This document shows positions 28-27,693 of a stretch of DNA of 32,000 nucleotides, piece by piece. The notes under the pieces were generated by a model that had not been told where the DNA came from, made no database searches, and saw only the letters and a program-made list of their open reading frames with translations. Position 1 is the first letter of the stretch. Each line of letters begins with the position of its first letter. Position numbers and translations under genes: made by a program. Source of the stretch: Pirellula staleyi DSM 6068 (lineage in GTDB: Bacteria; Planctomycetota; Planctomycetia; Pirellulales; Pirellulaceae); assembly GCA_000025185.1 (NCBI GenBank), contig CP001848.1:5700001-5732000 (forward strand). Reading direction: 5' to 3'.

Positions 28-110
28 GGAAGCCTCCGGGAGAGAGTTGCGGCAGGTTGGGCGCTGCTGACGAATCGTGCTGCGGCGCGGCGGGAGGAAA
101 CTGGGGCGGA

Positions 111-151
111 GACGAAAACAGCCGCACCGAGATGATTTCGGCAGCGGCTGT
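111..151 (-). terminator. Putative intrinsic terminator downstream of the TPR/DPF-repeat gene
   Basis: 8-bp outer stem ACAGCCGC/GCGGCTGT (118..125 with 144..151) plus inner stem CCGA/TCGG. On the minus strand it is followed by TTTTCGTC. The U-tract is only 4 nt. Confidence 0.4.
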
Positions 152-215
152 CGCTCGTTAGTCGGCGAGTGCGAAGAGGGGAAATCGCACGCGCCTCATA
201 AGGTCGTCGTGAACG

Positions 216-2255
216 CTATTCAGCAAACGGATCGTCGCTCGGCGCTGGGGCTGGCGCAGGTGCCGGAGCAGCTGGCGCGGCTGGAGCAGCAGGTTCCTCA
301 GCGAACGGATCATCGCTCGGAGCAGCGGGAGCTGGGGCCGGTGCGGGAGCCGCTGGTGCTTCTGGAGCATCGTCAGCAAACGGATCATCGCTTGGTGCTG
401 GGGCTGGAGCAGGTGCCGGAGCAGCAGGCGCGGCTGGAGCAGCGGGCTCCTCGGCGAACGGATCATCGCTCGGAGCAGCGGGAGCTGGGGCTGCAGGTGC
501 AGGAGCGGCGGGTGCTGCGGGTGCTGCTGGTTCTTCAGCGAACGGATCTTCCGAAGGTGCTGGAGCCGGTGCCGGTGCTGGTGCTGCAGGCGCTGGAGCG
601 GCTGGTGCCGCTGGTTCCTCGCCAAAGGGATCATCGCTCGGTGCAGGAGCTGGTGCTGGCGCAGGAGCTGCAGGCTTCACAGGAGCAGCGGGAACTGCTG
701 GTTCATCACCGAAGGGATCGTCACCAGCGGGAGCTGGTGCAGGTGCTGGCATCGGAGCAGGAGCTGCGGGGGCAGCAGGCTCTTCACCAAACGGATCGGC
801 ACTGGGTGCAGGAGCAGCTGGCTTTTCTTCGGCTGGCATCTCAGCAGCAGGTGCTGCGGGGGCTGGAGCTGCCGGTTCAGCGCCAAACGGATCATCGCTC
901 GGTGCTGGGGCAGCTGGTGCGGCTGGCTTCACAGGAGCAGCGGGGGCTGCTGGTTCATCACCAAAGGGATCGTCACCAGCGGGAGCTGGGGCAGGTGCTG
1001 GCATCGGAGCAGGAGCTGCGGGGGCAGCGGGCTCTTCACCAAACGGATCGGCACTGGGTGCTGGGGCAGCTGGCTTCTCTTCGGCTGGCATCTCAGCAGC
1101 GGGTGCTGCGGGGGCTGGAGCCGCTGGCTCGGCGCCAAACGGATCATCGCTCGGTGCTGGGGCAGCTGGTGCGGCTGGCTTCACAGGAGCAGCGGGGGCT
1201 GCTGGTTCTTCGCCGAAGGGATCAGCAGCGCCTGGTGCAGGTGCTGGCATCGGAGCTGGGGCGGTTGGCTCGGCACCGAAAGGATCGTCACCAGCAGGTG
1301 CAGGAGCAGCTGGCTTCTCTTCGGCTGGCATCTCAGCAGCAGGTGCTGCGGGGGCTGGAGCTGCTGGCTCAGCGCCAAAGGGATCCTCAGCGGCGGGTGC
1401 CGGTGGAGCTGGCATCGGGGCTGGTGCAGGAGCAGCGGGGTCAGCACCAAACGGATCTTCACCAGCAGGCGCTGGCATCGGAGCCGGTGGAGGCGATGCT
1501 GGGTCGGCTGGCATTGGGGCTGGAGTGCCAAACGGATCTTCACCAGCAGGCGCTGGCATCGGAGCCGGTGGAGGTGTTGCTGAGTCGGCTGGCATTGGGG
1601 CTGGAGTGCCAAACGGATCTTCACCAGCAGGCGCTGGCATCGGGGCCGGTGGAGGCGTTGCTGGGTCGGCTGGCATTGGCAGCGGAGCAGCTTCGCCCGA
1701 CTCAGGCAACGTGGCAGGAGCCTCGGCACCACCAAACGGATCGCTTGGGTCGGCCTTCGGCGTCACACCTGGAACTGCTGGAGCCGTGCGCGTCGGGTCG
1801 CGAAGCACTTCGTCTTCAGCACGTTTGGTCTCTTCGTAACGAGCTTTGTCGCGCGTCGTTTCTTGGTTGTAAACACTCAGGCGGGCCGAGCGGCGGGCCC
1901 CTTCAATCGCCATCCGATCGCCACCTTGGATGCGTTCCAAGCTGCGACCAATCGGAATCGGCAATCCACCCACGACTTCGAGTTCGGCACCCGTTTTGAA
2001 GTCGGCCTTGGCTTCATCAGGTCGGCCTGTCTTCGAGAAGACAAGGCCTCGGTAGTAATAGACCCGCGGATCGCGGCTACCACCACTAATCGCTTCCGAG
2101 AGCAACTGGTGAGCATCGGCGTAATCATGAGCAAAATAGGCGTGAACGCCTCGCCCATAGAGTTCGTCGAGCAGCGTGTCTTGCGACCATGCCGCAGGGG
2201 CACAGCACGTGAAGATCACCGCTAAACACACAGCGCTAAGTGCGCGTCCAGCCAT
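216..2255 (-). CDS. Secreted TPR-like protein with a long Pro/Ala-rich tail carrying 19 DPF(G/A) motifs
   Basis: ORF 216..2309. I prefer the internal Met at 2255, which gives a signal peptide (MAGRALSAVCLAVIFTCCAPAAWSQ) and has GGAG about 10 nt upstream. The helical TPR-like head includes YYYRGLVFSKTGRPDEAKADF. A tail of about 510 aa repeats ...PSDDPFGEEPAAPAAPAP... and ends in DDPFAE-stop. Confidence 0.8.
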   Translation of the reverse strand: MAGRALSAVCLAVIFTCCAPAAWSQDTLLDELYGRGVHAYFAHDYADAHQLLSEAISGGSRDPRVYYYRGLVFSKTGRPDEAKADFKTGAELEVVGGLPIPIGRSLERIQGGDRMAIEGARRSARLSVYNQETTRDKARYEETKRAEDEVLRDPTRTAPAVPGVTPKADPSDPFGGAEAPATLPESGEAAPLPMPADPATPPPAPMPAPAGEDPFGTPAPMPADSATPPPAPMPAPAGEDPFGTPAPMPADPASPPPAPMPAPAGEDPFGADPAAPAPAPMPAPPAPAAEDPFGAEPAAPAPAAPAAEMPAEEKPAAPAPAGDDPFGAEPTAPAPMPAPAPGAADPFGEEPAAPAAPVKPAAPAAPAPSDDPFGAEPAAPAPAAPAAEMPAEEKPAAPAPSADPFGEEPAAPAAPAPMPAPAPAPAGDDPFGDEPAAPAAPVKPAAPAAPAPSDDPFGAEPAAPAPAAPAAEMPAEEKPAAPAPSADPFGEEPAAPAAPAPMPAPAPAPAGDDPFGDEPAVPAAPVKPAAPAPAPAPAPSDDPFGEEPAAPAAPAPAAPAPAPAPAPSEDPFAEEPAAPAAPAAPAPAAPAPAAPSDDPFAEEPAAPAAPAAPAPAPAPAPSDDPFADDAPEAPAAPAPAPAPAAPSDDPFAEEPAAPAAPAAPAPAPAPAPSDDPFAE
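619..1371. repeat. Three tandem units of about 261/252/240 bp inside the DPF-tail coding region
   Basis: The unit start 'gcgccaaacggatcatcgctcgg' recurs at 880 and 1132 (period 252). Related unit starts lie near 619 and 1372. Shadow ORFs 677..895 and 929..1147 are exactly 252 bp apart. Confidence 0.85.
1447..1689. repeat. Three tandem 81-bp units (27 aa each) inside the DPF-tail coding region
   Basis: 'ccaaacggatcttcaccagcaggcgctggcatcgg' begins at 1447, 1528 and 1609. The units differ at only a few positions. Confidence 0.9.
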
Positions 2256-2728
2256 AAACAGAAGCTCCGAAAACAGGTCGAAAAGATGGATCGAAAGCCC
2301 GAAAACCACTGACTCATCCGCGGGCCAATCGCGCGTCCATGCCTGCCTCGCAGCGCTCGTCTTGTCATGAAGCAGAGACCGGTTCGTACATGCCGAAACA
2401 GCCGCCAGACAATCGCGCTCGTCGATGAGAAGTCGCCACCAGCATCATCCCCGCTGGCACGAAACCGAACTTGCCCCACGCGCATCAATAGCAACGCCCT
2501 GGCATTTCCGGTCAGGCGTTATCCTAGTTCCCCGCTGTCGCCGCCGCAAGCAAATCTGCGTGTTAGGCAAGTTAGGTGTGGAGCTTCTCCCCGTCTCCAT
2601 ACAGCAATCAACCTGCACACCCCTCAAAAGAAGTGTGCAAGCGAGCATTCTGCGGACACGATACGCAACTCTCCTGGGTGAATTCCAAAAGGAACTCACC
2701 CCCCACCAATTAAACAGGAACCGCGCGC

Positions 2729-2768
2729 AGCAAAAAGCCCTTGTGCTTTTTGGGAACTCAAGGGCTTT
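2729..2768 (-). terminator. Intrinsic terminator after the DUF1080 gene
   Basis: On the minus strand: AAAGCCCTTG, a 15-nt loop, then CAAGGGCTTT followed by TTGCTG. The 10-bp stem pairs 2734..2743 with 2759..2768. It lies 53 nt after the stop at 2821. Confidence 0.55.
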
Positions 2769-2820: not shown

Positions 2821-3429
2821 CTAGTCCAGACGCTTCACGCGGATGTTGCGATACTTCACGGTGCTGCCAGGATCGTGAGCCTGCAGCGCGAAGGTTCCTT
2901 CGCTGATGTGCATCGGGCCAGCCTTGTCGGCTGCTTCTTCATACTCGTTGGCAACCTTGCCATTGATCGTCACCGTCACCTTGCGATCCACCACCTTGAT
3001 GTTGTAGGTGAACCATTCGTTGTCCTTCGCTGGTGCTTCGAGCACATCCTTGGCGCGATAAACACTGGCGGTCTTGCGCGGGTCGCGCTCGAAGGTGTTG
3101 TTCACCTGGCACTCGTGACCCTGCTGTGGCCAACCTTCTTCCTGCACCTTCGTGTGGAAGAAAATGCCGCCGTTGCTGTTCTCGAGCGTCATCACTTCGC
3201 ATTCGAACTCAAAATTCTTGAACGGCTTGTCGTCACCCACGTAAAACGCGTGCGAACGATTCCCCTTGGCGACAATCGCCCCATCCACCACCTTGATGCT
3301 CTCTTTGTTCTCGGTAACCTTCCAGCCATCGAGGGTCTTGCCGTCGAAGATGGTTTTGAAATCTTCGGCCACCGCCACACCACTCAGCATCAAACTGCAA
3401 ACAAGCGACCAGGCCAAGCTGCGATACAT
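2821..3429 (-). CDS. DUF1080 (3-keto-disaccharide hydrolase-like, concanavalin-type) secreted protein
   Basis: ORF 2821..3552, with the start moved to the Met at 3429 so that a signal peptide (MYRSLAWSLVCSLMLSGVAVA) leads. The sequence 'EDFKTIFDGKTLDGWK' ... 'GGIFFH' ... 'ALQAHDPGSTVKYRNIRVKRL' is the typical DUF1080 pattern. Confidence 0.8.
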   Translation of the reverse strand: MYRSLAWSLVCSLMLSGVAVAEDFKTIFDGKTLDGWKVTENKESIKVVDGAIVAKGNRSHAFYVGDDKPFKNFEFECEVMTLENSNGGIFFHTKVQEEGWPQQGHECQVNNTFERDPRKTASVYRAKDVLEAPAKDNEWFTYNIKVVDRKVTVTINGKVANEYEEAADKAGPMHISEGTFALQAHDPGSTVKYRNIRVKRLD

Positions 3430-3642
3430 CGTTGGTAAACTCCCAAGGAAGAGGAAAACTGCGATTGCGTGGAGCGATCCCCACGCGCAGATGGAAATGT
3501 TCGGCAAACACATCTTGCGGCAGAACTGCTGTAGTGTGATCAGTCGCCGCACCTAAGGCAATTGCCCCGCCCGTACGCTGCTCTCATGCGTAGACGCAGC
3601 GTCTATCTCGCGCAAGCGCCGCCTGCAAATTGGCTGAATCCC

Positions 3643-4350
3643 TTAGTCGAACCGATATTCTCCCACCACCGGCTCGTCTACGATTCCGAGGTGATCTTCC
3701 AGTTTCTGCTCGAGAAACAGGGCAAAGTCTTCATCTTCGAGCGCCGTGAGGAGCTTGATCTTCTCTTCGTTTTTCATCAGCACGTGCAGTTCGAACGAGC
3801 TTTGCCGCGACTTCCGCGAGCCCCGGTTCTCGACGCAGTAGAACTGCTCAATATCAATCACTTGCAGCACGCGACTGCCCGGCCATGGCAGCGGGCCATG
3901 CCGCAACTCAAGCTGCCCCAGGGCGACGACGATGCTCGTCCGATTCACAAACGTGCTGATCACAAAATAGGTCAGGCCGACACCAATAGCGACATGGATG
4001 ACGGGGAACAGCAGCATCACGATGGCCCCGAAATCGCCCCCTTTGGCCCACAACTGGGCCAGGCCGATGCCATACCACATCACCAGAAAGCCGTCCCAGA
4101 AAATACAGAACAGCAGCAAGAACCAGACCGTGTGGGTGAACCACTTCCAGCGAATCGCCAGTTCAGAACCGGTGTCGACAATTTCGAGCCGCTTCGGGGG
4201 CTTTGCCTCTGGTTTGCGTCGACGCTTAGCAGCGATCGTCTCCGAGAAATTGAACACGGCATTGCAAGCCCGGCACTTGGCAATCGCCAGTTCGATGTTG
4301 ACATCCTCGGCCAAGATCATTTTTTCGCACGACTGACAATACAGCTGCAT
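3643..4350 (-). CDS. Hypothetical membrane protein: N-terminal 4-Cys zinc ribbon, 3 predicted TM helices and an acidic C-terminal domain
   Basis: ORF 3643..4395. The likely start is MQLYCQSC at 4350. The sequence has CxxC...CxxC (CQSC...CRAC), a basic linker KRRRKPEAKPPKR, and the hydrophobic segments WFLLLFCIFWDGFLVMWYGIGL and AIVMLLFPVIHVAIGVGLTYFVI. I do not recognise the family. Confidence 0.6.
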   Translation of the reverse strand: MQLYCQSCEKMILAEDVNIELAIAKCRACNAVFNFSETIAAKRRRKPEAKPPKRLEIVDTGSELAIRWKWFTHTVWFLLLFCIFWDGFLVMWYGIGLAQLWAKGGDFGAIVMLLFPVIHVAIGVGLTYFVISTFVNRTSIVVALGQLELRHGPLPWPGSRVLQVIDIEQFYCVENRGSRKSRQSSFELHVLMKNEEKIKLLTALEDEDFALFLEQKLEDHLGIVDEPVVGEYRFD

Positions 4351-4628
4351 CGCTCGTCTGTCCCCTTTCGGACTCTCTGGTAGCCACCTTGCCAACTAAC
4401 CGGGCGGAAAACGAAGCCAGTTTCTCGATCCAGCGGCAGGTGAACCTTACTTCGAAATCCAGCCTCCTGTCCCTAGCTCAGCCGCAAGTCCGGCAGCAGA
4501 GAAACCAGAACCTAGCTGCCCAAACCACCCGAGCAGACAATTAGCCGGCATCCGTAACTCACTGACAGCATAAGACTTACAGCCTACAGTTCACAGCCAA
4601 GTGCTCAGACCCGTCTCCGAGAGCACGC

Positions 4629-4657
4629 TTGACCCACTGTGCCGAGCAAAGTAAGTT
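4629..4657 (+). promoter_or_regulatory. Sigma70-like promoter for the leuA leader
   Basis: TTGACC (4629..4634), a 17-nt spacer, then TAAGTT (4652..4657). It lies about 30 nt upstream of the leader-peptide ATG. Confidence 0.45.
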
Positions 4658-4686
4658 AGTAGAAGAATTTACGCAAGGAAATCTGC

Positions 4687-4746
4687 ATGTTTTTGGCTCT
4701 ACTTCCACGACTTCGCCTAACCGCCCTTTGCCGGGGTTGGTCGTAG
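4687..4746 (+). CDS. Candidate leucine-rich leader peptide MFLALLPRLRLTALCRGWS (19 aa)
   Basis: AAGGAA (4675..4680) lies 6 nt before the ATG at 4687, and the stop is TAG at 4744..4746. Six of 19 codons are Leu, all TTG/CTA/CTT. A terminator follows, and leuA lies downstream. The ORF is too short for the ORF track. Confidence 0.5.
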   Translation: MFLALLPRLRLTALCRGWS

Positions 4747-4788
4747 GGAATTTGTAGCCGAGAGCCGCTTCAATCGCCTAACACCAAA

Positions 4789-4819
4789 CCCCGGGGCATC
4801 GCTGCCTGCGGGGTTTTTT
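4789..4819 (+). terminator. Intrinsic terminator / attenuator inside the leuA leader
   Basis: The stem pairs 4789..4798 with 4803..4813 (CCCCG/CGGGG, then a one-base bulge, a G-U pair and 4 more bp). The loop is the tetraloop TCGC, followed by T6 (4814..4819). The 5' arm is also complementary to 4729..4741 inside the leader ORF. Confidence 0.6.
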
Positions 4820-4982
4820 AATGCCCACGTGCTGGCAGCAGGCACCGCTCGCAAAACAACAGCCCAGCACACCCACAACGCTTTAACACCACCGCAGTGA
4901 GCCGACGACGTGAGTTCTTTCCATCCCCACATCGATAGCCCGAGGAGCAAAGAGCCGTTGCTTTTGCGACTCCCCCTTCGCG

Positions 4983-5010
4983 TGCCGGCGTGAGGCCGGC
5001 AGTCCTTTTT
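4983..5010 (+). terminator. Second terminator-like hairpin in the leuA leader
   Basis: TGCCGGC, loop GTGAG, GCCGGCA (7-bp stem, 4983..5001), followed by GTCC and TTTTT (5006..5010). It lies 76 nt upstream of the leuA ATG. Confidence 0.4.
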
Positions 5011-5085
5011 CAAGGATTCGCAAGCTGGTTGTTGCTACCGATGTTTGTGAGGCAATGAACGTTAGAACTCAAGGATTTAATTTCC

Positions 5086-6630
<1,545 letters not shown>

Positions 6631-12132: not shown

Positions 12133-12183
12133 CTTGAATGATTGTTGTTGGGCGATGGAACGAATGGTTCCATCCAGTGGCAA

Positions 12184-13587
12184 CTAATCCCACCACCACT
12201 CGTCGGCCTTGAGTTGGTCGAGTGTGGTCTTCTCGCGAAGTGCCTTCACTTCTCCTTGTTCGTCGGCGAGGAGGTTTTCCTCGATCAAGGCGTCGGCTGG
12301 TTCGATATGCACGCCGCCACCGACGGGGGTCATCAGGGTCTTACCCTTCCAGATGGCGATGCAGGCGGTCTCGACTTGCTTAGGAGTTTCGTAGGTCTCG
12401 ACGGGGAAGCTCTCTTCGTTGCCGAAGAAATCCATCTTCCAGTTGCATTGACCGTAGAAGTCTTGCTGCTGGATGTAGGCGGCTGCGATCGAAATGTCGA
12501 TCAGGTTCTTCAGCTGAGCGTACACGGCGCTCTTGGCGGCCAGCTGAGGGTAGTTCTGGGTGAAGGTGGTGCAGAACGCTTCGCTGGCACGGTTCACGGT
12601 GCCACCCGCAACTGCGCGGCTGCCATCGCCATTGACCATTTCATTCTCGCCAATCAGCTTCACCCCTTGGCCGACGAGTTCCATCGCCATTTTGTCTTCG
12701 GTAACGCGAACGCATTCGTAGTTAGGGGTGAAGTACCACCGCTGCAGAGCGTTGCGCGACACATCGCGTGGGCTGGCGCGATCGACGTAGCTGACGATCT
12801 TCACGGGTGGCTGTTCGATGCCGATGCCGATCAGCTTCATACGATAGTCGGCTTCAACCATCACCTGGGCAAAGTGGGTCTTCGACGAGATGCCACGGAC
12901 GGTGACGTTTTGCAGACCGAGGTTTTCCTTCAGGCCAGCGACGATGTTATTGGCATCGCCCGGCTGTACGCGTCCGCTGATATTCACCAGGAACTGCTGC
13001 ATCTTCTGCAAGCCTTCCTTGGTGGGATCGATCGAGACAGCGATGATTTGCGTCTGTTTGCCAGCTGGTGGGTATGCACGCAGGGCAGTCACAACGTCTT
13101 GCAGTTCGAGCACAGCCCGGCCACTTTGAATGCCGAGCATTCGGCCAGCAGCATCGGGGGCAAAACCTTCAGCAGGTCCGGCCAGGACGATGTCGCCCGT
13201 TTCAGGGTAGAAGAAAACGTACTGCAGACGGGTAAGACCGGCGAGGAACTTCATTTCCTCGGCGATCCCTTGGTTATTGGCCGCACGCTGGGCGATCACG
13301 CGCTCGAGACGTGTGAGCGAGACCTTGCGAAGTGGACTGGCGGTGGCCAGATCGGCACCGAGACGGGCCTTCGCCTGAGCCTGCCACTGCTTGCTGAGAG
13401 TGCCGGTGGTGTCGTTCAGCATACGGGTGCGAAGCACGCCGCTGGAATCGACTTCCACACCAGCCGCTGCGACCTGCGCGTGGGCGATATGGGGGCAAAG
13501 GGTTGCCGCAATCGCCGCAAGGGCGAACGCACGAATGGCATGACCAATAGACAACTTGCTCACAGGAATAGCCTCAATCTCTTGCAC
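12184..13587 (-). CDS. Conserved secreted protein of unknown function (possibly the Planctomycete DUF1598 type)
   Basis: 467-aa ORF with the signal peptide ...AIRAFALAAIAATLCPHIAHAQ and a non-repetitive, globular-looking sequence. The DUF1598 assignment is from memory only. An in-frame GTG (VSKLSIG...) is an alternative start. Confidence 0.7.
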   Translation of the reverse strand: MQEIEAIPVSKLSIGHAIRAFALAAIAATLCPHIAHAQVAAAGVEVDSSGVLRTRMLNDTTGTLSKQWQAQAKARLGADLATASPLRKVSLTRLERVIAQRAANNQGIAEEMKFLAGLTRLQYVFFYPETGDIVLAGPAEGFAPDAAGRMLGIQSGRAVLELQDVVTALRAYPPAGKQTQIIAVSIDPTKEGLQKMQQFLVNISGRVQPGDANNIVAGLKENLGLQNVTVRGISSKTHFAQVMVEADYRMKLIGIGIEQPPVKIVSYVDRASPRDVSRNALQRWYFTPNYECVRVTEDKMAMELVGQGVKLIGENEMVNGDGSRAVAGGTVNRASEAFCTTFTQNYPQLAAKSAVYAQLKNLIDISIAAAYIQQQDFYGQCNWKMDFFGNEESFPVETYETPKQVETACIAIWKGKTLMTPVGGGVHIEPADALIEENLLADEQGEVKALREKTTLDQLKADEWWWD

Positions 13588-13619
13588 CGGGAGCCCAGAA
13601 AACTCGACAAGTCCCCTTT

Positions 13620-13648
13620 AGATTAGTTGGACTTGGCAAGATAGACAA
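13620..13648 (-). promoter_or_regulatory. Sigma70-like promoter for the 12184..13587 gene
   Basis: On the minus strand: TTGTCT (13648..13643), a 17-nt spacer, then TAATCT (13625..13620). It lies about 30 nt upstream of the start. Confidence 0.4.
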
Positions 13649-14969: not shown

Positions 14970-16145
14970 CTACAGCTTCGAAAAAGCGTCGAGGGCTTGG
15001 GTGATGTGGTCGTCACTAAGGGCGGCAGAGACTTGCACGCGAAGGCGAGCTTTTCCTTTGGGTACCACGGGAAAACCAAAGCCGATCACCAGCACGCCGA
15101 GCTCCAAAAGTCGCTTGCTTTTGGCAATCGCTTCCGCCTCGTCGCCAATCATCAGCGGGATGATGGCGGTGGGTGAATCGTGGACTTCAAAGCCCAATTT
15201 TTTGAAGCCCTCGCGCAGGGTTTTCACGTTGGCATGCAAACGAGTGGCGCGCTCGGGTTCGCGCTCGAGGACTTCAATCGCTTTCCGAGCGCTCATCGCC
15301 ACGGTGGCGGGAACAGCATTCGAAAACAGGCTCGGCCGGCCGCGCTGCTCGAGTACTGAAATAGCATCGGGACTAGCCGCAACATAGCCGCCAGCCGCAC
15401 CGCCGAGCGCTTTGCCAAGCGTGCCAGTAATCACATCGATTTGACCGAGCACGCCAAAATGTTCGGGCGTTCCCCGACCAGTGGCGCCTAGCGCGCCGAT
15501 GCCGTGCGAATCGTCGACCACGAGCATCGCTTCGTACTCGCGGCAGAGCTTGATGATCTCGGGAAGTGGCGCGACATCTCCTTCCATGCTGAAGACGCCA
15601 TCGGTCACCACCCAGCGGACTTCTTTCTCGCGCGTGGCCTTGAGCTTGGCTTCGAGATCGGCCAAATCGTTGTGCTTATACACGCCGCGCTCGGCCTGTT
15701 TATTCACGAGGCGAATGCCGTCGATGATGCTCGCATGATTCAGCTCGTCGGAGAGAATCGCATCATTGGGGCCGACGAGTGTCGGGAAGACAGCTTCGTT
15801 AGCGCACCAGCAACTCACGTACGACAAAGCAGCCGCGGTGCCGACGAGTTTGGCGATCGACGCTTCGAGTTCGCGATGGCACTGGAGCGTTCCACAGATG
15901 AAGCGTACCGAAGCTGTTCCGGCCCCATATTTTCGCAGCCCCTCGTGCCCTGCTTCGATCACTTCTGGATGATCGGCCAGGCCCAAGTAGTTGTTCGAGC
16001 ACAGCACGATCGCCTCGCCGACACCAGCGATTTTGGCAGTGGCGCCGAGAGGTCCAATCAGCTCGTGAAAGGCCTTGAGTTGACGCGTCTCGCTCAGCCC
16101 GCTGAGGAGGTCGCGAGCACGGAGGTCGAAGCGGGCGTTTGGCAT
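14970..16145 (-). CDS. kbl: Glycine C-acetyltransferase (2-amino-3-ketobutyrate CoA ligase)
   Basis: 'CSNNYLGLADHPEV', 'SDELNHASIIDGIRL', 'VDDSHGIGALGATGRG' and the PLP-lysine motif 'TGTLGKALGG'. Length is 391 aa. Confidence 0.93.
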   Translation of the reverse strand: MPNARFDLRARDLLSGLSETRQLKAFHELIGPLGATAKIAGVGEAIVLCSNNYLGLADHPEVIEAGHEGLRKYGAGTASVRFICGTLQCHRELEASIAKLVGTAAALSYVSCWCANEAVFPTLVGPNDAILSDELNHASIIDGIRLVNKQAERGVYKHNDLADLEAKLKATREKEVRWVVTDGVFSMEGDVAPLPEIIKLCREYEAMLVVDDSHGIGALGATGRGTPEHFGVLGQIDVITGTLGKALGGAAGGYVAASPDAISVLEQRGRPSLFSNAVPATVAMSARKAIEVLEREPERATRLHANVKTLREGFKKLGFEVHDSPTAIIPLMIGDEAEAIAKSKRLLELGVLVIGFGFPVVPKGKARLRVQVSAALSDDHITQALDAFSKL

Positions 16146-17194
16146 GGGAGAGCTTCCTCGTGAGGGACTTCGAGCACCACTTTAATTGCTTCGCCGTTCT
16201 GCATCAGGCGGAAGCCTTGCTCGAAATTGGCGAGCGGCAATTGGTGCGTAATGATCGGAGCAAGATTGAGTCGACCCGACAGGACAAAGTTCTCGACCTG
16301 ATACCAGGTTTCGAACATTCGTCGGCCGTTGATGCCAAGGACGGTGGCACCTTTGAAGATGATATCGTTTGGCAAATCGAGCGCCACAGGCTCGCCGGGA
16401 ATTCCGAGCAGAGCCGCGGTGCCGCCGTTGCGCAGGGCCGCAAAGCCTTGACGAATCGCTACCGGATGGCCGCTCATTTCCAGCAGCACTTCCGGACCTT
16501 GATTGTGCGTGAGTCTGCGTGCTTCAGCGACCCAATTTTCGTCGCTCGAATGGAACGCGACATCAGCTCCAAGCTGTTTCGCAAGAGCGAGCCGCTTGGG
16601 ATCGCGATCGGTTACGAGAATCGTCGCAGCACCAGCAGCGCGAGCGATGGTAACAGCCATCAGGCCGATGATGCCGACGCCGGTAATCAGTACCGAGCGA
16701 CCGCTCACTCCAGCTGCCATCACGGTGTGCATGGCGTTGCCGAGCGGATCGAACACGGCAGCGATGTGATCGGGAATGCTGGGGTGTACGGGCCAGATGT
16801 TTTCTTCGGGAACGGCTACGTACTGAGCGAAACAGCCGTTGCAGTCGATGCCGAGGATATCGACCTTCTCGCAGATATGGCCATTGCCGGTACGACACGG
16901 CTGACAGACGCCACAGCCGATGTGTCCTTCGGCGCTCACACGCTGTCCGACATGGGCTCGCGTCACAGCATCGCCGATGGCAACAACCCGCCCGACGAAC
17001 TCGTGACCGGTGGTGATCCCCACCAGCACGCGGCTGCGGCTCCAGGCGTCCCATTCGTAGATGTGGCGGTCGGTGCCGCAAATGCCAGCATGGGTGACAG
17101 CAACCAGCACTTCGCGCGGACCGATGCGTGGAACTGGTGTATCATCTTGCCACCACAGCCCGGGCTCGCTCTTGAGTTTACGAATGGCGAGCAT
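16094..17194 (-). CDS. tdh: L-threonine 3-dehydrogenase (Zn-dependent MDR family)
   Basis: This is the real part of ORF 16094..17716. Starting at Met 17194, 'MLAIRKLKSEPGLWWQDDTPVP...HAGICGTDRHIYEWD' aligns with the E. coli Tdh N-terminus (alternative Met at 17236). 'GHEFVG' and the structural zinc site 'CGVCQPCRTGNGHIC' are present. The 3' end overlaps kbl by 52 nt. Confidence 0.9.
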   Translation of the reverse strand: MLAIRKLKSEPGLWWQDDTPVPRIGPREVLVAVTHAGICGTDRHIYEWDAWSRSRVLVGITTGHEFVGRVVAIGDAVTRAHVGQRVSAEGHIGCGVCQPCRTGNGHICEKVDILGIDCNGCFAQYVAVPEENIWPVHPSIPDHIAAVFDPLGNAMHTVMAAGVSGRSVLITGVGIIGLMAVTIARAAGAATILVTDRDPKRLALAKQLGADVAFHSSDENWVAEARRLTHNQGPEVLLEMSGHPVAIRQGFAALRNGGTAALLGIPGEPVALDLPNDIIFKGATVLGINGRRMFETWYQVENFVLSGRLNLAPIITHQLPLANFEQGFRLMQNGEAIKVVLEVPHEEALPCQTPASTSVLATSSAG

Positions 17195-17274
17195 GGTTGC
17201 TGGCAGTTTCGAAGGGGCTGCGGGAAGCGAAGTCATGGCGAACCTCACGAGTCGAGTGGTCAGGATCGAGGCTG

Positions 17275-17292
17275 TATTCCGATTTCCTGGAA
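17275..17292. promoter_or_regulatory. Operator-like 18-mer, site 1 (TATTCCGATTTCCTGGAA)
   Basis: It resembles site 2 (17347..17364) with 12/18 identities and shares the TATTCC...GGAA ends. It lies in the tdh / XRE-regulator divergent intergenic region. Confidence 0.3.
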
Positions 17293-17311
17293 AGCGGCCT
17301 TCATTTCTGGT

Positions 17312-17340
17312 ATAGTAGAACCATCGACTCCGACTTACAA
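17312..17340 (-). promoter_or_regulatory. Sigma70-like promoter for tdh-kbl(-ltaE)
   Basis: On the minus strand: TTGTAA (17340..17335), a 17-nt spacer, then TACTAT (17317..17312). Confidence 0.4.
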
Positions 17341-17346
17341 GACCTT

Positions 17347-17364
17347 TATTCCAATATTCCGGAA
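17347..17364. promoter_or_regulatory. Operator-like 18-mer, site 2 (TATTCCAATATTCCGGAA), containing the perfect palindrome ATTCCGGAAT
   Basis: The 10-bp palindrome lies at 17356..17365, 10 nt upstream of the regulator ATG and just upstream of the tdh -35 element. Confidence 0.3.
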
Positions 17365-17374
17365 TTCCTCTCCG

Positions 17375-17983
17375 ATGTCCCGTGAATCTTCCGAAATACC
17401 GTCGGGCGAACCGCTGCAGCAGTTGGTGTGCGATCGGGTTCGCTCGATGCGTAAAGCCAAGGGGTGGACCCTCGAGCAGTTGGCCAGCCTGAGCGGCGTA
17501 AGTCGAAGCATGCTCAGCGAAATCGAACGCGGCAGTGCCAACCCCACACTGGGCGTGGCATTTCGCATTGCGCAGGCTTTTGGGATGACCCTGGGGGATT
17601 TGGTCGACTCGCCCGAGCCTCCCAAGCCTCGGATTGATGTCATCCGGAGCGATGACCGCAGCTTCATGTTCCGCGACGATAGCGACTGCCGCATCCGCAC
17701 GCTTTCGCCGCTGCACCTCGAAAAAGATGTCGAATTCTACGAGCTAACCCTCCGCACGGGTGGAAAACTCGAGAGCCAGCCCCACTTCGAAGGGACTCGC
17801 GAGTTCCTGACGGTCGAAAAAGGGGTCGTCAGGCTGACTGCTGGGAGCGAAACGTCGGAACTCAAGCAGGGAGATTCGGCCCACTATCCCGCCGACGTGC
17901 CGCACGAAATCCGGAATATCGGACGGGGCGAAGCTGTCGTCTTCCTCGTCGACATCTACGGCCGCCCGAGCCAGCGGCGGTAA
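17375..17983 (+). CDS. XRE-family HTH plus cupin transcriptional regulator
   Basis: This is the C-terminal 202 codons of ORF 16139..17983. The rest of that ORF is antisense to tdh. The HTH is 'WTLEQLASLSGVSRSMLSEIERGSANPTL' and the cupin motif is 'GDSAHYPADVPHEIRNIG'. Confidence 0.85.
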   Translation: MSRESSEIPSGEPLQQLVCDRVRSMRKAKGWTLEQLASLSGVSRSMLSEIERGSANPTLGVAFRIAQAFGMTLGDLVDSPEPPKPRIDVIRSDDRSFMFRDDSDCRIRTLSPLHLEKDVEFYELTLRTGGKLESQPHFEGTREFLTVEKGVVRLTAGSETSELKQGDSAHYPADVPHEIRNIGRGEAVVFLVDIYGRPSQRR

Positions 17984-25980: not shown

Positions 25981-26040
25981 AGCCCTACGATGACTAGCCC
26001 TACGATGACTAGCCCTACGATGACTAGCTCTGCGGTGATT
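25981..26040. repeat. 15-bp tandem repeat AGCCCTACGATGACT: 3 perfect copies plus 1 degenerate
   Basis: The perfect copies are 25981..25995, 25996..26010 and 26011..26025. 26026..26040 matches at 11/15 and touches the pfp stop codon (26039..26041). Confidence 0.95.
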
Positions 26041-27343
26041 ACTCGTTGACGTAGGTTTCGAGGAAGCGGGCGAGGCGGTGGAAGTCGCTGCCTGTTTCGA
26101 TGAAGCGAACGACGGTGACGAGGGTTTGTGGGTCGACCAGCTTTTCAAACGGCACATAGTGCAGCTGCAATTGGCCGGTGACCGAAACCATGACGCCGTT
26201 GTGTCCTTCTTCGACCAGGGCGCGATAGGCACCGACGCCGAGTTGGCTGCCGAGCATTACGTCGAAAGCGTGTGGTTTGGCACAGCGCGATTCGTAGCCC
26301 AGCTGCAGGCCGGTGACCTTGCGGCTCTTGCCCGATGCTTTCTTGTAAGCATCACTCACCAGCTTCGAGAACATGCGGCCCAGGTTGACGTGCGAAATCG
26401 AGATATGGCCGTGATCGTCGCGCGGAATCCCTTCGAGGTATTTCATCGGGAGGAGTTCGGCGAGTCCCTCGGCCATGACGATCACGCCAAACTCTTTGCG
26501 CTCGTCGTCGCGGGCCATCATCAGCTTGACGATGCGGCCGACGACGCGCTCGACGTCCATGATGTCGCGAGTATCGTTTTCGCCCGTCTTGGGATTGGGG
26601 ACGGTTTCGGTCGTGCGATAGCTGCCGATGATGTCTTCAACGCTGATCACCAAGCTGGCTTCGCCGGCGATGGCGGCACCGTACGACAGCCAACCTGCGC
26701 TGCGGCCCATCGTTTCGGTGAGGAAGTAGGCGCGGCTCGCTTCAGCATCGGCCAGCAGGTTGCGAATTTCGGAGGCGAGCGTTTCGACAGCGGTGAAATA
26801 GCCGAACGTGAAGTCGATCCCCATGTAATCGTTGTCGATCGTTTTGGGGAGATGCACGACCGGGATGCGCTTGGCCGAAGCGGGCAAGGTGTCCTGGTAC
26901 ATCTTGAACTTGTTGGCGGTTTTGAGGGTGTCGTCGCCACCGATGGAGATGAGGGCATCGACGCCGAGCGAGCAGAGCCCTTCGTAGACGCGGCGCATCG
27001 GGGCCGACAGCTGCGGGTCCTTCAGGTGATCGGGGTGCGAGATGTGCTTGCCGGGATTGGCGCGGGCGGTGCCGATCATGATCCCTTGCGAGCTGCGGGT
27101 TCGCTTGAGGACTTTGTGGGTGATGTTGACGTAGTGCTTGTCGGCTTCGAGCGGCTTCTCGGGGGAGTAGTCGATGAGGTTCGAGTAGCCGTACTGAATG
27201 CCGTAGACCTCGATGTTGTTTCGCAAAAACGAAACAGCGGCGGTCGAGATCACGGCGTTAGCGCCGGGAGCTGGTCCACCTGCAAAGAGGATCGCCACAC
27301 GTTTAATGGAGGTGTTTTTTTTCACCGGAGTCGTCATGGACAT
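26039..27343 (-). CDS. pfp: Pyrophosphate-dependent 6-phosphofructokinase (PFK family)
   Basis: The start is moved to Met 27343 or 27337 (MSMTTPVKK). Motifs are 'FAGGPAPGANAV', 'SIGGDDTLKTA', 'LPKTIDNDY' and 'ETMGRSAGW'. The GGDD plus PKTIDND combination is the PPi-type signature. Confidence 0.88.
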   Translation of the reverse strand: MSMTTPVKKNTSIKRVAILFAGGPAPGANAVISTAAVSFLRNNIEVYGIQYGYSNLIDYSPEKPLEADKHYVNITHKVLKRTRSSQGIMIGTARANPGKHISHPDHLKDPQLSAPMRRVYEGLCSLGVDALISIGGDDTLKTANKFKMYQDTLPASAKRIPVVHLPKTIDNDYMGIDFTFGYFTAVETLASEIRNLLADAEASRAYFLTETMGRSAGWLSYGAAIAGEASLVISVEDIIGSYRTTETVPNPKTGENDTRDIMDVERVVGRIVKLMMARDDERKEFGVIVMAEGLAELLPMKYLEGIPRDDHGHISISHVNLGRMFSKLVSDAYKKASGKSRKVTGLQLGYESRCAKPHAFDVMLGSQLGVGAYRALVEEGHNGVMVSVTGQLQLHYVPFEKLVDPQTLVTVVRFIETGSDFHRLARFLETYVNE

Positions 27344-27693
27344 GCAATTAAAACCTTCACGCGGAAACGAAGTCGCCCGAGATTGCCAGCAACCATAGCG
27401 CTGGCTCATGCCTGGCGGAGAAGCGCCAGTGGCAGAGGTGAGGAGAGAGTTCCGCACAGGAGCCGGAGAATCGCTGTTGGCAAACCGTAGATTGTAGAAA
27501 CGGCACCCGCTGGAGCCAAGCGGCCTCCGGAGGGTGCCGGCGATCCGTGTGAGGTGAAGGTTCCGCGTAGTAACCGCGCCGCTGGGGGCAATAAAAAGCG
27601 TTACTGTGGCAAGGCTTAGCGCAGCAATTCGAGAGCCAGGAAACAGGGTCGGATCCTGGCTGCGAGTCGCTATAGCAATCGTGGCGGCCGGCG

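Follow-up and report, generated by a model that had tools for sequence, protein, structure and literature searches.

The window considered here is a stretch of 32,000 nucleotides (nt) from Pirellula staleyi DSM 6068 (contig CP001848.1, positions 5,700,001 to 5,732,000), in which leuA, the gene for 2-isopropylmalate synthase, occupies positions 5086..6630 of the plus strand. Coordinates are window positions unless another locus is named, and all leader elements described lie on the plus strand. The identity of leuA is given by the NCBIfam profiles NF002086 (760 bits) and TIGR00973 (731 bits), the cut-offs of which are both exceeded; its ribosome-binding site is AAGGA at 5071..5075, 10 nt 5′ of the ATG. 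The next gene codes for a DUF1559 pseudopilin, and leuA appears to be monocistronic. A sequence-only reading of the window had described 690 base pairs (bp) without a credible long open reading frame (ORF) in front of leuA; the interval is actually a divergent intergenic region of 733 bp (4353..5085). The upstream gene starts at 4352 on the minus strand and has a codon-usage score of 0.36 bits per codon, versus 0.08 for the plus-strand ORF overlapping it, and a 98-residue minus-strand ORF at 4717..5013 is regarded as spurious, with no Pfam match and a negative codon score. This leader region very probably harbours a ribosome-mediated leader-peptide transcription attenuator, which would make the expression of leuA, the regulated gene, respond to charged tRNA-Leu.

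Five leader elements had been proposed in the sequence-only reading, and direct inspection of the sequence bears out all of them together with their coordinates: (i) a promoter consisting of the -35 box TTGACC (4629..4634) and, after a 17-nt spacer, the -10 box TAAGTT (4652..4657); (ii) the Shine-Dalgarno-like sequence AAGGAA (4675..4680), 6 nt 5′ of an ATG at 4687; (iii) a leader peptide ORF, MFLALLPRLRLTALCRGWS, extending over 4687..4746 with 19 codons and then TAG at 4744..4746; (iv) the octamer CCGGGGTT at 4731..4738, which is the exact complement of AACCCCGG at 4787..4794; and (v) a hairpin with a GC core at 4789..4813 (10 bp, one bulge, -15.6 kcal/mol), the stem of which is extended by A-U pairs to 4786..4816 and which ends in T6 (4814..4819). 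Transcription would start near 4664, leaving a 5′ untranslated region of 23 nt that includes AAGGAA. The ORF thus has the start codon and the ribosome-loading signal of a classical attenuator, and its translation is predicted. The hairpin and the T-tract form a predicted intrinsic terminator (4786..4819) placed between the leader ORF and the structural gene; since the upstream gene is divergent, this terminator cannot belong to it. A spacer of 266 nt (4820..5085) follows before leuA. The leader can be divided into four segments: segment 1 is the Leu-codon region (4689..4712); segment 2 is the 5′ strand of the putative antiterminator (4723..4748), with the core CCGGGGTTGGT at 4731..4741 and the stop codon inside; segment 3 is the 3′ strand of the antiterminator (4776..4798) and overlaps the 5′ arm of the terminator (AAACCCCGGGGCA); segment 4 is the 3′ arm of the terminator (4804..4816), followed by T6.

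Within the window alone, the evidence beyond chance is weak; the comparative evidence is strong. In a LeuA-anchored scan of 80 loci from Pirellulales and other Planctomycetota (one genome per species, 68-81% amino-acid identity), 51 relatives, and hence 52 of 81 loci with the window, show a strong GC hairpin and a run of T5-10 ahead of leuA. All 52 terminators follow a mini-ORF that begins with ATG or GTG and stops 27-53 nt short of the stem; the median length is 19 codons, 35% of the residues are Leu, and at least five Leu in seven codons are found in 44/52. The interpretation as a leader-peptide attenuator, originally put forward for the window alone, is thereby upheld, the mini-ORF being conserved in position, length and Leu richness in 51/80 related leuA loci. 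Among background mini-ORFs of all loci (n = 3,342), 59 (1.8%) reach at least five Leu in seven codons, which is consistent, by number and not ORF by ORF, with the leaders plus their nested in-frame starts. Where the terminator is missing (27 loci), the combination of a Leu-rich mini-ORF and a subsequent terminator was not found either; one of these loci, L028, has a TTG-start ORF with four Leu in seven codons approximately 500 nt 5′ of leuA. A covariance model of 96 positions (R1), built from 42 relatives with the window left out, matches 4723..4820 over positions 1-96 of 96 with 40.7 bits (E = 2.6e-9, rough calibration), 266 nt 5′ of leuA and on the same strand, and the second-best match in the 64 kb searched scores 12.3 bits. 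Relatives outside the training set score 35-56 bits, and every plus-strand R1 match in the 80 loci lies directly 5′ of leuA. With its full-length match in this position, the window element belongs to a Pirellulales leuA leader family, the consensus of which reads GCnGGCCnTAGGGGTTnG ... AACCCCGAGGCC-loop-GGCCTCGGGG-T6-7; the segments complementary to each other across the family are GGCCnTAGGGGTT, which spans the stop codon of the mini-ORF, and AACCCCGAGGCC. Cultured carriers, by record name, are Stieleria tagensis, Stieleria magnilauensis, Novipirellula herctigrandis, Roseiconus nitratireducens and Rhodopirellula sallentina. The helices covary in the relatives, a check that the sequence-only reading had suggested: in the terminator helix, 91.7% of the cells are paired and 62 double changes are seen versus 18.3 in shuffles, a level reached by 0/500 shuffles, and slid controls collapse.

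The six Leu codons of the window leader are TTG (4693), CTA (4699), CTT (4702), CTT (4711), CTA (4717) and CTT (4726), i.e. CTT three times, CTA twice and TTG once among 19 codons, an enrichment in codons for the amino acid of the downstream pathway that is typical of classical attenuators. The contrast with the CTG/CTC usage of neighbouring genes, to which the sequence-only reading had drawn attention, holds for leuA: its 34 Leu codons comprise 13 CTG and 13 CTC (26/34), six TTG and two TTA, and neither CTT nor CTA occurs. The codon-usage score of the leader ORF is -0.33 bits per codon, versus +0.36 for the neighbouring gene. Throughout the family, the leaders use all six Leu synonyms, and CTA makes up 23.4% of their Leu codons versus 2.3% in leuA, a ten-fold enrichment; the use of all six codons together with the enrichment of CTA indicates that selection acts on coding. 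The codons are also suitably placed, in that 305/363 Leu codons family-wide lie at least 14 nt 5′ of the antiterminator strand, as do 5/6 in the window relative to the antiterminator core. With this geometry, the antiterminator strand would be covered once the ribosome has reached the stop codon and would be exposed while the ribosome sits on the regulatory codons. Shine-Dalgarno-like sequences precede only 12/52 family leaders. The peptide of the window shares the core LLPRL with that of L002 (MNLLPRLPLQLLTLALGRP); further examples from relatives are MATLNLLRLLLLALRERRP, MLPPQFLLPLLLLLPKP and MMTTNLNLLPLLLLCGRGP. Hydrophobic and Leu-rich as they are, such peptides resemble small membrane peptides, and, equipped with its own promoter and terminator, the mini-ORF might be taken for an independent small gene that encodes a hydrophobic micro-protein and merely adjoins leuA. 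This appears extremely improbable and is the least credible of the alternatives considered: the peptide sequences are unconserved except for their richness in Leu, rare codons abound in the ORFs (CTA as above), most peptides, with 15-21 residues, are too short for spanning a membrane, and the stop codon forms part of the segment that is complementary to the terminator arm. Moreover, whichever gene lies upstream, the ORFs always directly precede leuA and share its strand; the upstream genes belong to 44 unrelated clusters and occur in both orientations, so that the element evidently travels with leuA.

The attenuator interpretation gains further weight from metagenome contigs, which were searched with the RNA pattern alone, leuA not being used. 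The search yielded 56 loci. In 50 of them, a Leu-rich frame terminates at the motif. Among the loci with at least 450 nt of downstream sequence, likewise 50 in number, 46 carry a close leuA (66-84% identity) immediately 3′. The 6/56 loci without a Leu-rich frame are rich in Ile and Val instead, with leaders such as ...GNVVVIAIIIGEHGP, ...RAVIIIRPQEWP and ...DVIGIIGIVYWRP and runs including NVVVIAIIIG, AVIIIRP and VIGIIGIV (L116:4816-4884(-), L096:522-589, L118:123-190(-), L083:3586-3656(-), L097:1578-1647 and L092:3-71(-)). Citramalate synthase, a paralogue of LeuA, catalyses the first step of the citramalate route to isoleucine. Its gene is located directly 3′ of the Ile/Val leader in L116 (TIGR00977, 671 bits; cut-off 450), L096 and L118 and further 3′, behind a DUF5695 gene, in L083; in L097, a TPR gene 3′ of the leader runs off the contig, and L092 ends at the contig edge. 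The regulatory codons thus match the pathway of the downstream gene, as the leader-peptide model predicts and rival models do not. One such rival is a riboregulator that binds a protein, a tRNA or a metabolite (riboswitch-, T-box- or LEU-element-like) and controls the terminator, the mini-ORF being incidental. There is a precedent in the actinobacterial leuA leaders, where a conserved structured LEU element is found and leader-peptide mutations do not behave classically (PMC1262725). For the Pirellulales element we consider a riboregulator very unlikely: in 52/52 elements, an ORF of ~19 codons beginning with ATG or GTG has stayed open, and the six Leu codons interchange freely in its nucleotide sequence; the codon run changes to Ile/Val exactly where citramalate synthase is downstream; no extra conserved aptamer-like structure is seen between ORF and terminator; and Rfam gives no relevant match, Leu_leader (RF00512), RF01743 and T-box included, for 4300..5200 at E <= 10, for the whole window at the gathering score or for L055 2560..3010. 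Matches to asX2 and sR10 in the window, with E of 7-8, are attributable to chance.

Folding of the leader supports a ribosome-controlled attenuator in several respects. Of the antiterminator pairing proposed in the sequence-only reading, the 8-nt core is exact, and the extent proves larger than the 4729..4741 with 4783..4798 given there: the predicted duplex comprises 4723..4748 with 4776..4798, spans the stop codon and has an energy of -23.3 kcal/mol (z = -2.6). One of its strands is also part of the terminator, such that the two modelled structures are mutually exclusive. The best partner of the terminator 5′ arm, sought thermodynamically in ORF and spacer, overlaps the leader stop codon in 41/52 loci (mean z = -2.1), and lineage-specific compensations of the antiterminator can be read by eye (GGCC..GGGGTT/AACCCC..GGCC, GGCG..GGGTTT/AAACCC..CGCC, TTGCGA/TCGCAA). 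In the window, the antiterminator is the minimum free energy (MFE) structure of both 4720..4803 (-32.3) and 4720..4820 (-38.9), and when 4720..4758 is blocked to mimic a ribosome at the stop codon, the terminator remains (-19.9). In the ribosome-free RNA (4664..4820, MFE -52.7 kcal/mol), segment 1 pairs with segment 2 (4689..4712 with 4737..4765) and the terminator forms as well; family-wide, segment 2 is captured by ORF sequence to 0.71 versus 0.51 in shuffled sequence (p = 8e-8). The stall model of the sequence-only reading accordingly stands as far as the early Leu codons are concerned and needs refinement by the 1:2 pairing and by the Leu codon at 4726, which is too close to the antiterminator for read-through.

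Several observations weigh against this interpretation. In the window, the MFE z-score of 4660..4825 is only -0.98 and not significant, and the -10 hexamer is weak, matching TATAAT in 3/6 positions and remaining uncalled by a promoter scan. The window leader is among the weakest of the family: it has 6/19 Leu, at most two of them consecutive, and its best seven-codon window contains four Leu versus the typical 5-6. The sixth Leu codon (4726) is 5 nt from the antiterminator core, and stalling there would favour termination. Between terminator and leuA there remain 266 nt of unexplained leader, with another mini-ORF and another hairpin. On MAFFT columns, covariation of the antiterminator is modest, with 73.5% of the cells paired, a value reached by 6/500 shuffles, and 28 double changes versus 14.9 in shuffles; register shifts account for the weaker signal on such fixed columns. 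Finally, when the ribosome is masked at the Leu run, the full-length MFE structure still contains the terminator in 40/52 loci. Since the terminator usually prevails at equilibrium, the decision between the two folds must be a kinetic one, as it is for the classical attenuators, and the equilibrium test was replaced by a co-transcriptional one that omits the terminator 3′ arm. Before the 3′ arm is present, the terminator 5′ arm is sequestered to 0.80 in the family with the ribosome in the Leu run and to 0.29 with the ribosome at the stop, versus 0.57 with shuffled upstream sequence (p ~1e-9); the corresponding values in the window are 0.9, 0.4 and 0.64. The folding comparison that the sequence-only reading had called for thus comes out as expected, the arm being free with the ribosome at the stop and sequestered with the ribosome stalled on Leu codons, and the modelling results fit a four-segment kinetic switch.

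That the terminator is the favoured fold at equilibrium, and that the spacer is long in the window and holds a second conserved motif in many relatives, would also suit a different explanation: the hairpin and T-tract may be a constitutive insulator or terminator against transcripts that run through from the divergent promoter region or an upstream small RNA, and leuA may have its own promoter in the 266-nt spacer. We regard this as even less probable than a riboregulator. The distance from terminator to leuA ranges from 18 to 295 nt across the loci, and many relatives have only 18-60 nt between the end of the T-tract and the ATG of leuA, too short a stretch for a separate promoter; no sigma-70-like promoter is called in 4820..5085; and the Leu-rich ORF, the complementarity spanning the stop codon and the Ile/Val variants would be left unexplained.

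For the leader-peptide attenuator, computation establishes that the parts exist, are conserved, covary and co-occur with leuA, and that the folding alternatives behave as predicted; from these we infer a transcription start, translation of the ORF, stalling, kinetic competition and a response to leucine in the following manner. Transcription would begin near 4664 from TTGACC-N17-TAAGTT, and a ribosome would load at AAGGAA/ATG 4687 and translate the 19-codon ORF with its six rare Leu codons. When leucine is plentiful, the ribosome would reach TAG 4744 and cover segment 2, so that segments 3 and 4 could form the terminator and transcription would stop at ~4819. When leucine is scarce, the ribosome would presumably stall on the early Leu codons (4693..4719), masking segment 1 and leaving segment 2 free; the latter could then pair with the emerging segment 3, the terminator would not form, and RNA polymerase would continue into leuA. 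In the absence of a ribosome, the pairings 1:2 and 3:4 may both form, again resulting in termination.

The promoter, too, finds its counterpart in the relatives, as one would expect from the TTGACC-N17-TAAGTT pair pointed out in the sequence-only reading. A pattern TTGAC[CGT]-N17/18-TAnnnT with a score of at least 8.5 of 12 is present upstream of the leader ORF in 33/52 loci versus 4.5 expected from shuffles, and the -10 hexamers of relatives are of a similar TAnnnT type (TAAGCT, TAACTT, TAAAGT). In the window and ~17 others, the end of the -10 box and the leader ATG are 27-61 nt apart (29 nt in the window). In 17 loci with a good TTGACN-N17/18-TAnnnT the -10 box ends 6-9 nt before the ATG (L007, L012, L015, L017, L018, L019, L024, L025, L026, L029, L033, L036, L041, L043, L046, L054 and L070); this group includes Rhodopirellula, Rubripirellula, Stieleria, Novipirellula, Roseiconus and others. 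From the promoter geometry alone, a leaderless leader-peptide mRNA is implied for these 17 loci. On balance, it seems probable that all these leaders constitute one modular, previously undescribed attenuator family of Pirellulales, with a conserved RNA chassis (GGCCnTAGGGGTT...AACCCCGAGGCC-loop-GGCCTCGGGG-U6-7), the stop codon in the antiterminator, sensor codons that are swapped (Leu for leuA, Ile/Val for citramalate synthase) and some leaderless members.

The enterobacterial leuL has 28 codons, with a Leu-codon cluster biased to rare CUA and four Leu codons in a row. The Pirellulales element resembles the enterobacterial leu attenuator (RF00512) in being a short ORF with Leu codons and CTA bias, followed by an antiterminator/terminator pair with a U-tract, 5′ of leuA, and in the proposed read-through upon stalling at Leu codons. 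Unlike it, the window leader has 19 codons with dispersed Leu codons, its chassis is GGCCnTAGGGGTT / AACCCCGAGGCC, leuA is apparently monocistronic, and no homology in sequence or structure is detected (no Rfam match at E <= 10). The element is therefore analogous to, and not a member of, the Rfam families Leu_leader (RF00512) and Leu/phe leader (RF01743). With E. coli trpL it has in common the four segments with 1:2, 2:3 and 3:4 alternatives, the masking of segment 2 by a terminating ribosome and the ribosome-free state 1:2 + 3:4; in contrast to trpL, its codons are for Leu and not Trp, the stop codon is inside the antiterminator helix in 41/52 family members, and the sequences are unrelated. 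Mycobacteria possess leaderless cysteine-responsive short ORFs, which the 17 relatives with leaderless geometry recall, unlike the window with its predicted 5′ untranslated region of ~23 nt and AAGGAA. The actinobacterial leucine leaders (Streptomyces leuS attenuators, leuA LEU element; Seliverstov et al. 2005, PMC1262725) are similar in having a Leu-codon ORF 5′ of a leucine gene, outside Proteobacteria, and in being predicted from comparative genomics; the leuA LEU element differs by its pseudoknot, in which the Leu codons pair with the leuA Shine-Dalgarno sequence, and by the lack of an obvious terminator (PMC1262725), whereas the Pirellulales element has the form of a terminator/antiterminator switch 18-295 nt 5′ of leuA. 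Branched-chain amino acid leaders of Firmicutes (S. aureus ilv-leu, PMC5794164; Lactococcus leu/phe, RF01743) and the upstream ORF of Corynebacterium ilvB (PMC10272879) likewise have upstream ORFs with branched-chain amino acid codons that control a downstream terminator, and related motifs with different codon mixes; they belong to other lineages and differ in sequence, and the Pirellulales family is distinct in bearing Leu or Ile/Val flavours on one RNA chassis before LeuA/CimA paralogues.

The mechanism is thus classical; what is new is the lineage in which it occurs, the swapping of codon specificity on a conserved chassis, and the coupling of transcription and translation that it implies. 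In a 2010 survey, leader peptides were then known only from Proteobacteria and Actinobacteria, to which Firmicutes were added (PMC2965389), and one paper does no more than count short upstream ORFs near genes in Planctomycetes (PMC4833913). In agreement with the sequence-only reading, which knew of no such description, a full-text literature search found no paper on leader-peptide attenuation of leucine genes in Planctomycetes/Planctomycetota; the broadest survey of attenuators, by Lopatovskaya et al. 2010 (Mol Biol 44:128), may contain a prior mention. If functional, the element would be the first attenuator of this kind found for Planctomycetota, a phylum in which gene regulation is almost unexplored, and would provide a concrete cis-regulatory element there. 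A leader-peptide attenuator needs a ribosome close behind RNA polymerase, and its conservation therefore argues for transcription-translation coupling in Pirellulales. If true, this would be genetic evidence of tight coupling in a phylum for which a separation of transcription and translation by the cell plan was long argued; the compartmentalisation of planctomycetes is debated (e.g. PMC5394234, PMC6212462). The occurrence of Leu and Ile/Val versions on one chassis before LeuA/CimA suggests that the specificity of an attenuator can change by codon replacement. In genome annotation, the mini-ORF and terminator should be labelled a leader rather than a hypothetical protein or empty intergenic sequence.

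Two features not mentioned in the sequence-only reading, a second mini-ORF and a hairpin, are found in the spacer that separates the terminator from leuA. The mini-ORF (GTG start, 4910..4993, plus strand; MSSFHPHIDSPRSKEPLLLRLPLRVPA, ending ...EPLLLRLPLRVPA) has five Leu in seven codons near its end, and its TGA stop sits in the loop of the hairpin 4983..5001 (TGCCGGC-GTGAG-GCCGGCA), which is identical over 17 nt to a hairpin in L001, where an ATG ORF, MFAIALVLPGPA, ends at the same TGA. The second mini-ORF possibly represents a tandem copy of the leader that has degenerated. The hairpin itself is probably not a terminator: its T-run begins 4 nt after the stem and pairs into a hairpin of its own (GUCCUU-UUUC-AAGGAU), and the homologous hairpins of relatives have no T-run. 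The second conserved motif of the family, ~64 nt between the attenuator terminator and leuA, consists of TCGAGGGCGnGGTTGGTGTTGCCCGG and then a hairpin GCCGAC-CWRGG-GTCGGC (model R2). It is found in 19 genome loci (e.g. L046:2866-2929, L055:2885-2948, L061:2887-2950) and 21 metagenome loci (e.g. L106:1108-1171), only in leuA loci and not in those of the cimA type; the hairpin stem shows compensatory changes, and no T-run follows. The R2 model gives no match in the window (E > 1), which retains only the hairpin part, and the motif has no Rfam match in L055 2560..3010 at E <= 10. A protein-coding segment was rejected as an explanation of R2, since no frame has a consistent start and stop, and so was a sigma-54 promoter, as the GG/GC spacing, read by eye, does not fit.

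Some relatives show further peculiarities of the leader. L008 (2646-2734) and L014 (2857-2949) have weak R1 matches of 27.9 and 22.2 bits upstream of leuA, with the terminator retained; L008 also keeps GGCCGTAGGGG, and no Leu-rich ORF is left in either locus, so that both are probably decayed attenuators. A small hairpin just 5′ of the stop codon ('P1') was considered as a general feature and dismissed, its family-wide mean z being only -0.67. Hairpins of this type (e.g. GCGCT-TCGCG-AGCGC, CTGGC-TTT-GCCAG, CTTGCC-AGG-GGCAAG) are present between Leu run and stop, in the last ~30 nt of the leader ORF, in L046, L048, L050, L055, L057, L062, L069 and L070, one Thermoguttaceae-like clade, and are compensatory by eye; in this clade, they may be RNA polymerase pause hairpins.

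Elsewhere in the window, the second-best R1 match mentioned above corresponds to 2731..2765 on the minus strand, where a terminator-like hairpin with a T-run (GCCCTTGAGTTCC...GCACAAGGGCTTTTT) lies just 3′ of a minus-strand 3-keto-disaccharide hydrolase gene (2821..3552); it is matched via the terminator part of the model only. Four pairs of long ORFs overlap almost fully on opposite strands. In the pair 77..1999(+)/216..2309(-), neither strand is clearly coding by codon usage, and weak TPR matches occur only on the minus-strand ORF; the other pairs are 12142..13626(+)/12184..13587(-), 16094..17716(-)/16139..17983(+) and 26039..27457(-)/26078..27490(+).

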